From the NCBI GenBank assembly GCA_964016885.1, contig OZ024741.1, positions 69,378,001 to 69,442,000 of the forward strand: DNA of 64,000 bases. The letters run 5' to 3'. The stretch comes from Eledone cirrhosa. Its lineage: Eukaryota. This document shows, one piece after another, positions 31,142 to 62,720 of this stretch (position 1 is its first letter; each line of letters starts with the position of its first letter). Made by a program: the position numbers and the translations under genes. The notes below the pieces were generated by a model. The model was not told where the DNA came from. It did not search any database and worked only from the letters and a program-made list of their open reading frames with translations.

Positions 31142-31570
31142 CACATGGCTTAGTGGTTAGAGCATTGGGCTTGCAATCGAAAGGTTGTGAGTTCAATTCT
31201 CAGACCGGGTGATGTTGTTTCCTTGAGCAAGACACTTTATTTCACATTGCTCCAGTTTACTCAGCTGTAGAAATGAGATGATAGGACTGGGGTCCCTATC
31301 ATTCCACTGCAAAGTGGTTGTGGAGGTGCCACAGCAAAAAAGCACCCAGCCCACACTGTAAAGTGGTCGTGTAGGCGCCACGGAAAAAAAGCACCCACCA
31401 CTCATTGTAAATGAGGTTGGTGTTAGGAAGGGCATCCTGCTGTAGAAATCAAGCCAGAATCAGTTCCCGTATGAGCAAGACAAGGTCAGCTGACCGGACA
31501 CTGCCCATAACAGGACAACCCGTCTAACCCATGCTAGCGTAGAATGGACGTAAAACGGTGATGATGATGA
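31139..31570 (+). mobile_element. SINE family B, long-tail variant
   Basis: Same head as 22571. The tail matches the RTE subfamily 2 3' UTR (reverse complement of 1-190 and 32930-33190). Confidence 0.9.
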
Positions 31571-36590: not shown

Positions 36591-37189
36591 ACCTCTTGGA
36601 TAGTTAAGGAAGACTTAGAGTAGGTGTTGCCATGGATCTTATTTTTTATTTAGTCTAGATATTGTTTAAAGACCTTCATCATATTCTTTTGAGGGAATCC
36701 CTTAACATATTCTTTGGAAGGGATGTCATAAAAGGAAGGAAGGAGTGAAAGAAAAAAGAAAGAAAGAAAGGGAAATAACAAACGGAAGAAGTCAAAAGAA
36801 AAAGAGACATGAAGGATTAATGCAGTGGTGGTGGTGGCGGTGGAGGTCTTTTCTTCTTCCCTTCTCTTTCATTGTCATCTGTTTTATTTTTTCTTTCGGT
36901 TTTTTTGTTTGTTTAATGTCATTCTTTCTCTTAGCTTATTAGAATCTTCTTCACCATCACTTCCCCTCCCAGCACACACTTCCTCCTCAACTGTTGCTGC
37001 TGTCACTATTACTAACGATATGGGTGGATGGTGTGGAGGCATTTATATATATATATGGATATATGTATGTGTGTGTGTAAGTGTGTACCCCCCACTCTGA
37101 AGCGTGAAACTAATATTAACATTTGTACTGCCTCTTCGCTTCCATATTGATTTTTGTTTACTGTCGCAACTATAAAATATATATATATA

Positions 37190-37995
37190 GTTTCAAAAAA
37201 AGCCCACATGGCAAAGTCTTTAGAATATACACCGCCCAACACAAGGTTAGTTATTAACGACATCAAAATAAACACAAGACAGAACAAGACACATGGGAAA
37301 ATATGGAGACAGAGGGTTTGGAAGCTAAAGGATCTTTCAGTTAGGCTAAGAAAGGCCCTACAGGATGCAGTAGATGAGAGAGGTGTTAAACTAGGTACAT
37401 ATAATGTAGAGGACAACTGGAAATTCTTCCGTGACAACCTTTTACAAACCACCAACAAGACGTGTGGCTGGAATAAAGCACCAACCACACAGAGAGTGAC
37501 TTGGTGGTGGAACAGCACAGTGAATAGAGCCATTAAAGCCAAGAAACAGATATGGAAAGACTTGAAAAATGGGGGTAGCAGACTGGTACCAGGTAGCTTA
37601 GAAAGAAGCTAAATGACAAGTATACACAGCTCAGAGAGGGGCTGAAAAACGTTTGTCAATGTCTTGAGATGTGAGGACCAGAAATATGAAGTGTTCTACA
37701 TTGCTAGGTAGTGTGTCAGTGTAAATTGAGATGTTGGGGGAAAATGTATTAGAAATGATGCTGCTGTACTTAGCACTACCAATGCCCTAAAGAAAGGTGA
37801 AGAAGTAACAGGAAATGGCAGTGGAAGGAAGCCACAGTAGAGATAGATGGAGAAAGACCTGGGCTGGGGTGGTGAGAGCTAACCTCAAATTGGTGAGACT
37901 CAATGGGAGATGATGAAGGAATGCAGCAAATGGAGAGATGCTGTGCTGAGAAAGCTCCATCTAATTCATGCGAGCATGGAAAAATGGATGATGAT
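37190..37995 (+). pseudogene. Old RTE LINE fragment (APE-RT linker joined to the 3' end)
   Basis: Peptide VWKLKD...VEDNWKFFRDNLLQTTNKTCGW...TWWWNSTVNRAIKAKKQIWK, then the tail CATGCGAGCATGGAAAAATGGATGATGAT. Confidence 0.75.
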
Positions 37996-41701: not shown

Positions 41702-41901
41702 NNNNNNNNNNNNNNNNNNNNNNNNNNNNNNNNNNNNNNNNNNNNNNNNNNNNNNNNNNNNNNNNNNNNNNNNNNNNNNNNNNNNNNNNNNNNNNNNNNN
41801 NNNNNNNNNNNNNNNNNNNNNNNNNNNNNNNNNNNNNNNNNNNNNNNNNNNNNNNNNNNNNNNNNNNNNNNNNNNNNNNNNNNNNNNNNNNNNNNNNNNN
41901 N
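41702..41901. other. Assembly gap (200 N)
   Basis: Run of N. Confidence 1.
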
Positions 41902-44027
<2,126 letters not shown>

Positions 44028-46111: not shown

Positions 46112-46153
<42 letters not shown>

Positions 46154-46177
<24 letters not shown>

Positions 46178-46570
46178 AGTTTATGTTGGTTGTATACCAA
46201 CACCTCAGTATGCAGGCTGGAGCACTCGACGAAGTGCGCAGGTTGGTTTGGTTACTCCGGAGTAGTGTTAAAATAAAGTTAAATAAAAGTCAAATGATTA
46301 AAATTTAGCTTCGTTTATTACTGCTTGTAATTCACTGAGGAACTGGAGTCATATGACTCCAGTTCCTCAGTGAAATAACAACCCAACAAGGAACTGGACA
46401 TATCAGAGTATTGACAATATTATACACCTAAACAACATATGTACTTGTCTATACCATACTAATTCAAACTGCCTGAAGAGGTCACAGCCAAAGATGGCTG
46501 TCACTGAAATATATATAGCAGTAATAAACGAAGCTAAATTTTAATCATTTGACTTTTATTTAACTTTATT
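46154..46570. mobile_element. Fold-back pLTR element with an internal perfect palindrome
   Basis: 46272-46324 is the reverse complement of 46518-46570. A perfect 44-bp palindrome lies at 46331-46374. (TA)n on both sides. Confidence 0.85.
46468..46522 (+). ncRNA. Type I hammerhead ribozyme
   Basis: actgc-CTGAAGA-ggt-c-acagcca-aaga-tggctgt-c-act-GAAA-tatata-TA|gcagt. Confidence 0.9.
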
Positions 46571-47035
46571 ATATATATATATATATATTTCATATTAATT
46601 GTATATATTTTATATAACTGGAACTTTTTTCATCTTTTCAACTTTTTAAATTTCTTTAAAAATTTTATCCTGACTAATGTCAACTGAAGTGCTTTTACAC
46701 CATTTATATTTGATAATTTATCTCTTATATTGATTCCGTCTCTATTTTCGTTTCACTTGGTAATCGGTCATTTCAGTTCACTTCTTGTTTTGACTACTAT
46801 CTCTCTTCCTTCATGTTCTCCCTCAAAGACTCACCACATTCATTTCTGTTATTTGGTCTTGTATTATCGATTACTGCTTCTGGTCTTTGTGTTGTGAACC
46901 AAAGATAAATACTGTGTTTGTCTTCTGTTGTGTTTTGGGGTGCTTATCACACACGTACATGTATACACACACGCACAAATACAAACAGACATATGTATGT
47001 ACATACATACAAACATACATATGTACGTACATACA

Positions 47036-47370
47036 GAGGCACATGGCTTAGTGGTTAGAGCATTGGCCTTGCAATCGAAAGGTTGTGAGTTCAATTCTCA
47101 GACCGGGTGATGTGTTGTTTCCTTGAGCAAGACACTTTATTTCATATTGCTCCAGTTTACTCAGCTGTAGAAATGAGATGATAGGACTGGGGTCCCTATC
47201 ATTCCACTGCAAAGTGGTTGTGGAGGTGCTATGGCAAAAAAGCACCCAGCACTCACTGTAAATGAGGTTGGTGTTAGGAAGGGCATCCAGCTGTAGAAAT
47301 CAAGCCAGAATCAGTTCCCATCCCACCCTTGCAAGCAGGGAAAAGCGGACATAAAAATGATGATGATGAT
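47036..47370 (+). mobile_element. SINE family B
   Basis: Nearly identical to the 22571 and 49251 copies; (GAT)n tail. Confidence 0.92.
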
Positions 47371-49192: not shown

Positions 49193-49250
49193 AAACTACA
49201 TTTACACTGTGTATTGGGTGCTTTTTATCATAGCACCAAAATGACCAATA

Positions 49251-49584
49251 GAAGCACATGGCTTAGTGATTAGAGCATTGGGCTTGCAATCGAAAGGTTG
49301 TGAGTTCAATTCTCAGACCGGGTGATGTGTTGTTTCCTTGAGCAAGACACTTTATTTCACATTGCTCCAGTTTACACAGCTGTAGAAATGAGATGATAGG
49401 GACTGGGATCCCTATCATTCCACTGCAAAGTGGTCGTGTAGGTGCCACGGAAAAAAAGCACCCAGCACTCACTGTAAATGAGGTTGGTGTTAGGAAGGGC
49501 ATCCAGCTGTAAAAATCAAGCCAGAATCAGTTCCCGCCCCACCCTTGCAAGCAGGGAAAAGCGGACGTAAAATGATGATGATGA
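49251..49584 (+). mobile_element. SINE family B
   Basis: Same structure as the 47036 copy. Confidence 0.92.
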
Positions 49585-59002: not shown

Positions 59003-61094
59003 TCATCATCATCATCATCATCGTTTAACGTCCATGTTCCACGCTTGCATGGGTTTGGACGGGAGTTTTCCCACTAGAGGCAAGAGTGGTTGTCATTTCT
59101 CGCATAGGACTGTCTGGCGTGTTTTCTACAGCTGGATGCACTTCCTAACACCAACCACATTTACAGTGTGGGGCTGGGAGGTTTTTACCGTGTTGCCTAC
59201 ACGGCCACATTACAGCGTGGACTGTGTGTTTTTTTGTCGTGACACCTACACGATCTCAATTGTTTCGGCCTGGATGTTGTGGCACCAACATAACTTTACA
59301 TTGAAAGGGGTGGTGGGGGTGGTGGGACGGGGGTGTATTTTGTTAGAGATGCCTACTGACTGTAGTAGGTTTTACTTTGTATTTAGGTAAGGCGGGTCTT
59401 CTCTATTACTGAGTACCGCCAAAGGTCTCGGTCCAGTGACATTGTCTTGGAGAGGTGTAAGTGTGTGAGGTCGGAATTTATCAGCTCGTCCCAGGTTTTT
59501 CTGGGTCTGCCTACTCTGTGGCTACCGTCTATCTTTATTGCCCTGCACTTTGTTATACAGCTGTCGTCTTTCATGCGCATCACGTGACCATACCAACGTA
59601 GCCTTCTCTCGAGTAAACAACATATGATCCCTCTTATTTCTAATTTTTTCCTTAGTTCGTTTATGCTTTGCCGTTCACGTATATTACTATTACACATCCA
59701 GCGGAGCATGCAAGTTTCGTTCCTCTCTAGTCTGCGTATATCCTCTGCACACAATGCCCAGGTCTCACTGCCATGCAACATTGCTGTCCGTATGCAGGCA
59801 TCATACAACCTGCCTTTCATTTTTAGGGAGAAACCTTTAGCGGCTAATAGTGGTATAAGCTCTCTGAACTTTTTCATCCAGTTCTGACTCTAGCTACTGT
59901 ACTTTCAGAGCACCCTCTCCCACTGCTGATTTTGTCACCCAGGTAACGGAAGCTGTCCACTATTTCTATAGAACCCTCTGCGCAATTGGAAGAGCTAGTA
60001 TTTTTTGGGCACTTGCTGCTACTTATTGCACAAGAGCACTGGTCACATGTAAAATCTATGTTCTTAGTTAGCTTACCTGTGATCCCACTACATCTTTTAT
60101 GCACCCATACTTTGCATTTGGGACATAAAATGGAGTTTCTACCTACGCCTTTCCTACACACTGAGCATGGCCATTTCCCCGATGGGACCGCCGCCTTATT
60201 TTCTTTCCTACAAACTAGAACTTTAGTCTTAGCCAGGTTAATTTTAAGGCCTTTTGATTCTAGGCCGTGCTTCCATGTTTGGAATTTCTTCTCTAGCTCG
60301 GCCATTGATTCAGCTATGAGCGTTAGATCATCTGCGTATAGGAGTTCCCATGGGCAGCCGGTCTTGAACTCCTCTGTTATAGCCTGAAGGGCAATAATAA
60401 ATAGTAGGGGGCTAAGAACAGAGCCCTGATGGACACCAACTTTTACGCTAAACTCTTCACTATATTCGTTGTTAATTCTAACCTTGCTGACTGTTTCTTT
60501 ATACATGGCTTGTATATCTCTCACAAGCCATTCGTCAACATCTAGTTTTCTAGGAGCCCACCAGATAATGGAACGGAAGACTCTGTCGAAGGCTTTCTCC
60601 AAGTCGACAAAAGCTAAATATAGGGGTTTACTTTTAGCTAGGTACTTCTCCTGTAGTTGTCGTACAATGAAGAGAGCGTCTGTGGTACTTTTGCCTGACA
60701 CAAACCCGAACTGCATTTCATCTAGATCAATTCTCTCTCTGATTAGTTGCGCTATTACTTTTTCCGTGACCTTCATGACCTGGTCGATTAATTTAATGCC
60801 TCTATAGTTACTCCTATCTAGGGCGTCTCCTTTACCCTTGTAACAGTTAACGATGATGCTGCTACGCCAGTCCTTCAGAACAACCCCATTCTGTATGACT
60901 TGGTTTACTATCCGGGTGACCATGGTGTGTCCCACCGTACCGGAGGCTTTCAGCATCTCAGCAACTATTTCCGAAGGCCCAGCCGCCTTACCCGTCTTCC
61001 TATCTTTGATTGCCTTACTTATTATACTACCTTCGACTAACACTGCTGGTCCCTCTATTGGGTCGATGTGGGGGAGACTGTCTTTCTCCCATTT
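59003..61094 (-). mobile_element. 5'-truncated RTE subfamily 1 LINE with complete RT domain and a 1-bp frameshift at ~59875
   Basis: NYRGIKL, FVDLEKAFD, GVHQGSVLSP and YADD motifs. The ORF is split into 59874-61094 and 59383-59877. (CAT)n tail. Confidence 0.96.
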
Positions 61095-61226
61095 GTGTGT
61101 ATATATATAAATATATATATATATATATGTATGTATGTATGCATATGTATGTATGTGTATATATGTATGTATGTGTGTATGCATATGTATGTATGTATGT
61201 GTATGCATATGTATGTATGTGTATAT

Positions 61227-62720
61227 AAGGAATGGCGTAGCAGCATCATCGTTAACTGCTATAAGGGAAAAGGAGATGCCCTAGATAGGAGTAACTATAG
61301 AGGCATTAAATTAATCGACCAGGTCATGAAGGTCACGGAAAAAGTAATAGCGCAACTAATCAGAGAGAGAATTGATCTAGATGAAATGCAGTTCGGGTTT
61401 GTGTCAGGCAAAAGTACCACAGACGCTCTTTTCATTGTACGACAACTACAGGAGAAGTACCTAGCTAAAAGTAAACCCCTATACTTAGCTTTTGTAGACT
61501 TGGAGAAAGCCTTCGACAGAGTCCCCCGTTCCATTATCTGGTGGTCTCTTAGAAAACTAGGTGTTGACGAATGGCTTGTGAGAGCTATACAAGCCATGTA
61601 TAAAGAAACAGTCAGTAAGGTTAGAATTAACAACGAATATAGTGAAGAGTTTAGCGTAAAAGTTGGTGTCCATCAGGGCTCTGTACTTAGCCCCCTACTA
61701 TTTATTATTGCCCTTCAGGCTATAACAGAGGAGTTCAAGACCGGCTGCCCATGGGAACTCCTATACGCAGATGATCTAACGCTCATAGCTGAATCAATGA
61801 CCGAACTAGAGAAGAAATTCCAAACGTGGAAGCACGGCCTAGAATCAAAAGGCCTTAAAATTAACCTGGCTAAGACTAAAGTTCTAGTTTGTAGGAAAGA
61901 AAATAAGGCGGCGGTCCCATCGGGGAAATGGCCATGCTCAGTGTGTAGGAAAGGCGTAGGTAGAAACTCCATTTTATGTCCCAAATGCAAAGTATGGGTG
62001 CATAAAAGATGTAGTGGGATCACAGGTAAGCTAACTAAGAACATAGATTTTACATGTGGCCGGTGCTCTGGTGCAATAAGTAGCAGCAAGTGCCCACAAA
62101 ATACTAGCTCCTTCAACTGCGCAGAGGGTTCTATAGAAATAGTGGACAGCTTCCGTTATCTGGGTGACAAAATCAGCAGTGGGGGAGGGTGCTCTGAAAG
62201 TACAGTAGCTAGAGTCAGAACTGGATGGAAAAAGTTCAGAGAGCTTATACCACTATTAGCCGCTAGAGGGTTCTCCCTAAAAATGAAAGGCAGGTTATAC
62301 GATGCCTGCATACGAACAGCAATGCTGCATGGCAGTGAGACCTGGGCATTGTGTGCAGAGGATATACGCAGACTAGAGAGGAACGAAGCTTGCATGCTCC
62401 GCTGGATGTGCAATAGTAATATACGTGAACGGCAAAGCATAAACGAACTAAGGAAAAAATTAGAAATAAGAGGGATCAGATGTTGTTTACTCGAGAGAAG
62501 GCTACGTTGGTACGGTCACGTGATGCGCATGAAAGACGACAGCTGTATAACAAAGTGCAGGGCAATAAAGATAGACGGTAGCCACGGAGTAGGCAGACCC
62601 AGAAAAACATGGGACGAGCTGATAAATTCCGACCTCACACGCTTACACCTCTCCAAGACAATGTCACTGGACCGAGACCTTTGGCGGTACTCAGTAATAG
62701 AGAAGACCCGCCTTACCTAA
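61227..62720 (+). CDS. RTE reverse transcriptase ORF remnant (RT, PHD-like Cys/His finger, C-terminus); uninterrupted but lacking the APE endonuclease and start
   Basis: RT motifs as in the minus copy, no stops. The upstream part of the listed ORF is microsatellite. Confidence 0.93.
   Translation, partial: KEWRSSIIVNCYKGKGDALDRSNYRGIKLIDQVMKVTEKVIAQLIRERIDLDEMQFGFVSGKSTTDALFIVRQLQEKYLAKSKPLYLAFVDLEKAFDRVPRSIIWWSLRKLGVDEWLVRAIQAMYKETVSKVRINNEYSEEFSVKVGVHQGSVLSPLLFIIALQAITEEFKTGCPWELLYADDLTLIAESMTELEKKFQTWKHGLESKGLKINLAKTKVLVCRKENKAAVPSGKWPCSVCRKGVGRNSILCPKCKVWVHKRCSGITGKLTKNIDFTCGRCSGAISSSKCPQNTSSFNCAEGSIEIVDSFRYLGDKISSGGGCSESTVARVRTGWKKFRELIPLLAARGFSLKMKGRLYDACIRTAMLHGSETWALCAEDIRRLERNEACMLRWMCNSNIRERQSINELRKKLEIRGIRCCLLERRLRWYGHVMRMKDDSCITKCRAIKIDGSHGVGRPRKTWDELINSDLTRLHLSKTMSLDRDLWRYSVIEKTRLT

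Follow-up and report, generated by a model that had tools for sequence, protein, structure and literature searches.

The window, by which we mean the whole analysed stretch of 64,000 nt, carries a 400-bp head-to-head insertion of a hammerhead-bearing Penelope-like retroelement (PLE) in a (TA)n target. Element coordinates are counted from the predicted ribozyme cut, so that +1 is position 46518 in the right arm and 46324 in the left arm, and -1 is the preceding A. The following features make up the locus:

46113..46173, no strand: (TA)n target microsatellite, left (tandem-repeat finding, 30.5 copies, 100%)
46174..46324, minus strand: long inverted arm, element +1 to about +153 (sequence comparison with family copies)
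46325..46330, plus strand: junction spacer TTGTAA, 6 nt, in the reading that we infer
46331..46374, no strand: perfect 44-bp palindrome centred on CAT/ATG (centre 46352/46353)
46351..46570, plus strand: short direct arm (pseudo-LTR), element -167 to +53 (sequence comparison)
46468..46522, plus strand: predicted minimal type I hammerhead, predicted cut after 46517 (fold prediction only; anatomy as described in PMC4209133)
46571..46589, no strand: (TA)n target microsatellite, right (read from the sequence)

The sequence GCAGTAATAAACG begins at 46518 on the plus strand and at 46324 on the minus strand, and the two arms match at 56 of 57 nt over 46517-46573 and 46325-46269, the shared part beginning at the A before the predicted cut. 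The claim of the preliminary description that the inverted copy starts within 1 nt of that cut is thereby borne out. The same description had run the copy from 46324 to 46154, to a complete 3' end in (TA)n; the copy does adjoin the (TA)n run, but the arm stops at 46174, and its end (+153) is the end of the tail, past which full-length copies run on to the ATG of the ORF at +208. The tail takes up about 100 nt of the inverted arm (46174-46271 in 46324->46174) and is absent from short arms. The 44-bp palindrome reported at the junction is indeed perfect and without a loop, but the 6-nt spacer separates it from the inverted arm. In element coordinates its centre lies 165 nt upstream of the cut, and the main 5' end of the family, A-167, corresponds to position 46351. 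Contigs from four sequencing runs contain the family and its variants, and none of them spans the junction in the window.

The right arm of the window copy holds a whole intact hammerhead, so the template of this arm was uncut. The predicted structure comprises a 5-bp stem I (46468-72:46518-22), the core CUGAAGA, a long stem II, GAAA, and AUA at 46515-17, with the self-complementary AUAUAUAU as stem III. RNA folding returned it as the minimum-energy fold of the direct arm, in agreement with the plus-strand hammerhead predicted earlier to cut after 46517, and the arm has the core CUGANGA...GAAA, the NUH site, stems I and II and the palindromic stem III by which minimal type I hammerheads of PLEs are recognised. 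The minimal PLE hammerheads described in PMC4209133 resemble it in their long helix II, short helix I, palindromic helix III that needs a dimer and low expected activity; the computed cost of 3.4 kcal/mol for closing stem III in the monomer would fit such dimer-dependent, weakly active ribozymes. The unconstrained fold of the dimer did not contain a double hammerhead, so that dimer activity is unsupported by computation, and Rfam gave no hammerhead match at the locus at either gathering or E-value thresholds. The closing pair of stem II (position 46505) is G-U in the window, and the canonical G-C pair makes up about 40% of the contig depth in runs X1-X3.

The 29-mer that follows the cut occurs in 3,940 exact copies in the 3.0-Gb genome, and the reversed control in none. 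A full unit of 4,152 bp is present at locus L101, where an inverted arm is followed by the 5' repeat, the ATG at +208, reverse transcriptase (RT), a Cys linker, GIY-YIG and the 3' repeat, which reaches +53 in (TA)n; the pseudo-LTRs thus stand in partial tandem next to an inverted 5'-truncated copy. The ORF encodes a PLE-type RT and then a GIY-YIG nuclease, as in EN+ PLEs. In the frameshifted copies L099-L105, the RT motifs LDIASYY, MGS, YRDD and FLD were read by eye, and the nuclease motif VY..YIG..R..H..H..CxxC is present. The Pfam GIY-YIG model matched with an E-value of 3.8e-4 and 21.1 bits, slightly below the cut-off of 22.6, the atlas assignment placed the nuclease in the GIY-YIG cluster (0.94), and the RT piece had no match in Pfam or PDB. 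There are 18 protein homologs of 601-806 aa, with one named relative, from Argonauta, that is 45% identical, which makes a cephalopod host probable. A linker of the form CxC-x5-C-x5-C lies upstream of the nuclease, and the C-terminal position of the nuclease excludes Naiad/Chlamys.

The downstream ends fall at about +53 or +153 in 97 of 100 mapped arms, and the tail is found at one end only. The layout of the family is the canonical Penelope layout of PMC8557442. With the canonical EN+ PLEs described there (the Penelope/Poseidon, Neptune, Nematis and Hydra clades) it shares the RT-GIY-YIG order, partial tandem pseudo-LTRs, an inverted 5'-truncated copy, a tail at one end, a hammerhead in the pseudo-LTR and (TA)n targets; the tail is about 100 nt long here versus 30-40 nt in those elements. 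A non-LTR retrozyme, defined after 10.64898/2026.07.22.740005 by head-to-tail tandem units that each carry a hammerhead and lack an ORF of their own, was rejected, because the arms here face each other head to head and belong to the pseudo-LTR of an element that has an ORF. Some variation was seen within the family. The hammerhead core is altered in the 5' repeat of L101 (L101:1560-1570, CCGAAGA for CUGAAGA) and stem II is changed in its 3' repeat, and a subfamily with a deletion of about 20 nt near -230..-250 relative to L101 is represented at L045, L062, L114, L119, L146 and L151. At L037:1600-2430, part of another element comes after the family tail, inserted in the same TA run; it has a linker rich in Asn and a similar GIY-YIG at its C-terminus.

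The genome-wide search for head-to-head pairs with 4-127 nt between exact 17-nt anchors yielded 12+15+23+19 = 69 insertions. All 69 of these very short pairs consist of a long and a short arm, one ending near +153 and the other near +53. Since each pair has two different fixed ends and the compared flanks are unrelated, an assembly artefact was rejected. Within an insertion, the two arms carry different alleles at 12 of 182 polymorphic sites (7%), whereas the figure between insertions is 36%; this allele comparison covers 38 of the 102 pairs with at least 100 shared positions, with one locus counted twice and some loci picked by their likeness to the window. Single arms from -167 to +53 that have no inverted partner also occur, and symmetric full -169/-169 palindromes are common (L107, L138, L139). 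As a separate observation, 12 of the 69 very short pairs (L307-L311, L317-L321, L338 and L343) share a junction at the inverted repeat of stem II (-34/-23), which is the largest peak.

In vitro, the Poseidon element PAc of Anolis extends both target strands from two internal RT starts that bound the tail, and uncut RNA is its main template (PMC11167929). The window family shares with PAc the two tail-bounding internal starts, the extension of both strands (here as it would follow from genomic copies) and the uncut main template. Taken together, the long and short arms, their shared alleles and this two-site priming suggest that a single sense transcript was primed twice. Gene conversion, or the copying of one arm from the other, might also account for the shared alleles.

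The 5' ends were mapped for 100 of the 3,940 sites, namely those that come first in genome order, with an anchor that starts at +1 and is blind to ends further downstream; an additional site encountered in L151 was excluded. In 33 of the 100 arms the 5' end lies at -170..-160, with 14 ends at -167 and 10 at -169, the latter mostly symmetric palindromes. Another 30 ends lie between -159 and -3, 35 further upstream and two at the cut, both of the last coming from one insertion, L128, within 2 nt of the cut; 98 of the 100 arms extend upstream past the cut. Genome-wide, 426 pattern matches break right at -167, with a pattern that misses symmetric palindromes and about a fifth of the rest. The -167 site has a CCAAT 52 nt upstream of it and, as we take it, matches the initiator consensus. 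The base 5' of the -167 end, read by eye on the element strand in the first 100 of the 426 matches, was G in 33, A in 10 and T in 57, where T mostly represents joins to TA runs. The script count on a subset of loci gave G in 12 of 34 ends, or in 12 of 26 away from TA runs, against an expected 18-23%, which is a modest excess. An untemplated G is accepted as a mark of cap copying for L1 and SVA (PMC4859970). On this evidence from genomic copies, -167 is likely a capped transcription start, and the palindrome, being centred on it, would record uncut RNA. An HDV-like ribozyme at -167 was rejected by eye, as P3/L3 is lacking. The first 55 nt or so after the -167 start (46351-46405 in the window) are predicted to form a hairpin (-17.1 kcal/mol in the first repeat of L101), and several junctions lie at its arms, at -150, -129 and -125.

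The preliminary description had read the palindrome as a snap-back from a ribozyme-made end, which the position of the palindrome at the dominant 5' end and the intact ribozyme in the right arm contradict. The wider form of that reading, in which the template normally has a ribozyme-made 5' end from which both palindrome and inversion arise by snap-back, can draw on the start of the left arm at most 1 nt from the predicted cut and on six other insertions in which both arms end there. We consider it very improbable, because the palindrome centre is at -165, at the main 5' end, the right arm contains the whole ribozyme, nearly all mapped arms pass the cut upstream, and the same architecture is found with breaks elsewhere (+8 to -30). 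As a general route it is refuted by the distribution of breakpoints.

In an antisense-template model like that put forward for rotifer Penelopes, the palindromes would instead be products of self-priming. The Penelopes of Adineta vaga have palindromes of 18-38 bp at the inverted junction, similar to that of the window, and PMC3846280, which reports them, reads them as self-priming and favours an antisense template; the allele sharing between arms would also fit self-copying. Our data favour instead a sense start, presumably capped, at the centre of the palindrome: the junctions pile up at the 5' end of the sense strand, and the extra G found there argues against the antisense template of PMC3846280. 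The single arms without an inverted partner also speak against it, and the strict pairing of long and short arms matches the two priming sites on sense RNA (PMC11167929). We therefore regard the antisense origin as improbable.

The position of breakpoints relative to the predicted cut was the check set beforehand for the idea that the inverted copy marks cleavage, and in it the window copy falls within the background. Its junction class, in which an arm shortened near the ribozyme is joined to a -167 arm, comprises 41 insertions, of which one, the window itself, ends unambiguously at +1/-1, compared with 1.3 expected, so this class is not enriched at the cut; three further insertions are compatible with the cut but ambiguous (ATAT overlap). 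Copies with the palindrome stub of the window break at +8, +6, -13, -20, -24, -29 and -30. Likewise, among 78 matches of single arms inspected by eye, 8 ends (and 2 unclear ones) fall at +1/-1 and 8, 9 and 9 at +5, +7 and +8, in a count that sets aside about 16 small indels and whose filter favours -1; single-arm ends in these 78 matches are thus not enriched at the cut. A breakpoint histogram of 99 sites (from the first 100 of 168 matches) gave way to exact counts, as its -19 bin is inflated by a private change of the reference copy and its filter favours AT-rich partners.

A small signal at the cut that looks real was found among the very short pairs, where both arms end at +1 or -1 in six of 69 insertions (L228, L231, L235, L236, L238 and L239); L221 ends at +1/+2, and L248 (+4/+1) lies outside the anchors and was left out of the count. 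In five of the six, a spacer of 1-13 nt lies between the arms, either untemplated or a short self-copy, so long microhomology does not determine where the ends fall. The six represent a third of the near-symmetric low-homology events (6/18, with 0.6 expected; P 2e-5 if breakpoints are taken as uniform, a null blind to sequence bias), and five of them are among the 15 spacer-bearing events. Among 44 low-homology events, arms end most often at +1 and at -1 (7 each), and shuffling of arms reached six in 0 of 100,000 rounds. The uniform null is generous, because microhomology alone gives similar or larger peaks, with 12 of 69 at the inverted repeat of stem II and 3-4 at two other spots. Half of the ends in the cut class include the A 5' of the cut, which is unexpected from a clean cut. 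Segmental duplication of these loci was rejected, since flank alignment scores of 9-77 over about 1.9 kb show the flanks to be unrelated.

If the two cDNAs shared an RNA 5' end, both arms would be expected to end at one spot with no excess among single arms, as is the case here, and the class is possibly a trace of rare cutting in living cells. It could also be real and yet have nothing to do with the ribozyme, arising either where RT pauses at the border of the UA run or where the DNA of the stem III TA run, which would offer the element nuclease a miniature target, breaks and is repaired by end joining with templated insertions. The A at -1 in half of the ends, the resemblance of the spacers to templated repair insertions, the preference of the element for TA repeats and the GC at +1/+2, which gives a 2-nt overlap in three of the six events, are all compatible with such an origin. 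The other three events are without GC overlap; moreover, pausing would enrich single arms too, which is not observed, and for breaks in the TA run joining would be expected within it, where only two symmetric events (-9/-10) are found versus six at +1/-1. We hold this origin to be rather unlikely. A minor capped start at -1 was also considered, and G precedes that A in only one of nine ends read by eye. With four symmetric -167 pairs per 100 arms, about 160 are expected genome-wide, versus 6-7 at the cut, and by this rough estimate some 3-4% of fully copied templates would be ribozyme-cut. The earlier inference of in vivo cleavage thus holds in part: the rare both-arm class and the left junction of the window, which resembles that of L236, are in its favour, and the window class and the single arms show no enrichment. 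For the family, in vivo cleavage as a rare event is plausible from the genomic copies.

The left arm of the window copy, read on the plus strand, ends in TTACTGC, after which come TT and GTAAT; in L236 an identical end precedes T and GTAAT. The spacer at 46325-46330 may be either two added T with a snap-back copy, 4-5 nt long, of +4..+8, as in L236, or the continuation of a damaged palindrome arm. The likeness to L236 favours run-off at +1 and then a short snap-back; the damaged palindrome needs an allele mismatch between the arms and a lost base. Since a cut template alone could not also yield the right arm, this would require either a second RNA or a jump over the nick. The odds that the left end derives from a ribozyme-cut template are about even. 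Chance is about as likely, whether because the long-arm cDNA happened to stop early or because a deletion of about 140 bp later occurred within a full -169/-169 palindrome: the count in the window class is that of the background, such palindromes are common, and the spacer can be read as the common allele of the family minus one base. The last of these requires different alleles in the two arms, which occur at 7% of sites, as well as the loss of 1 nt, and the alternative reading of the spacer matches the junction pattern of L236 and L238. The window copy alone proves nothing about cleavage, and the locus is ordinary.

The mechanism that we propose, and to which we give a probability of roughly two in three, is that a sense RNA, capped as a rule and ribozyme-cut in a few percent of cases, is primed twice and the cDNA 3' ends are then joined. 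Both strands of the TA target would prime reverse transcription, at +53 and +153 of the sense transcript. The short-arm cDNA would run through the uncut ribozyme to the presumed capped start of the RNA at -167, where its self-complementary end would fold back or pair and so give rise to the 44-bp palindrome. The long-arm cDNA would stop at the predicted cut, with about even odds for a cut template and for chance, and joining of the two cDNA 3' ends would produce the head-to-head insertion. Across the family, the ribozyme would cut a few percent of templates and so leave insertions in which both arms end at the cut. Whether the short copies can be taken as a fossil record of the Penelope cycle, with one sense RNA primed twice (+53 and +153) and both cDNAs running off the same 5' end before being joined, this end being mostly the capped start and in roughly 3% the hammerhead cut, we judge to be evenly balanced.

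None of the individual features is new, as element, inverted arm, palindrome, tail and ribozyme are all known. Pairs of hammerheads on opposite strands, 100-700 bp apart, were noted in PMC4209133, which calls in vivo evidence absent and presents no breakpoint analysis, in contrast to the breakpoint census given here. For PAc, no RNA-seq reads that end at the cut were found in PMC11167929, whereas a small genomic class ends there in the window family. The twin priming of L1 (PMC4859970) also involves a second priming that leads to an inverted 5' arm, and its capped ends carry untemplated G, similar to the extra G at the presumed capped start of the window family; in R2 (PMC11371274), cDNA 3' ends self-prime by snap-back before joining, especially after full-length synthesis. 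The window family differs from both L1 and R2 (PMC4859970, PMC11371274) in that both arms are copies of the same sequence, each begun at its own fixed internal site. The formation of inverted Penelope ends and in vivo cutting by the hammerhead are stated as open questions in PMC8557442, PMC4209133 and PMC11167929, and our search of titles and the openings of abstracts, in a library with few subscription papers, together with passages from the papers cited here, found no published report of Penelope junctions at a capped start or at a hammerhead cut. A young family of about 4,000 copies offers a countable readout of the putative capped start at the palindrome centre, of the strict long and short arms and of the rare both-arm cut class, and the same junction test can be applied to any genome with a large young family. 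If true, the two-start model would be genomic evidence for germ-line cutting by a metazoan Penelope hammerhead and would speak against antisense self-priming.

Several other features were observed in the window. Reading frames at 246-2318, 37015-37609 and 59386-62717, some of them on opposite strands around simple repeats, look like fragments that we take to be of RTE-type LINEs. Two tRNA-derived SINE-like repeats of about 320 bp (47035-47356 and 49250-49572) are 94-97% alike, and a weak Rfam tRNA match lies at 31146-31203. The interval 41702-44024 consists of a 200-N assembly gap and, after it, an AT microsatellite of 2.1 kb, and the segment 33935-34022 is a perfect palindrome with unique arms of 20 bp around a (TA)24 centre.
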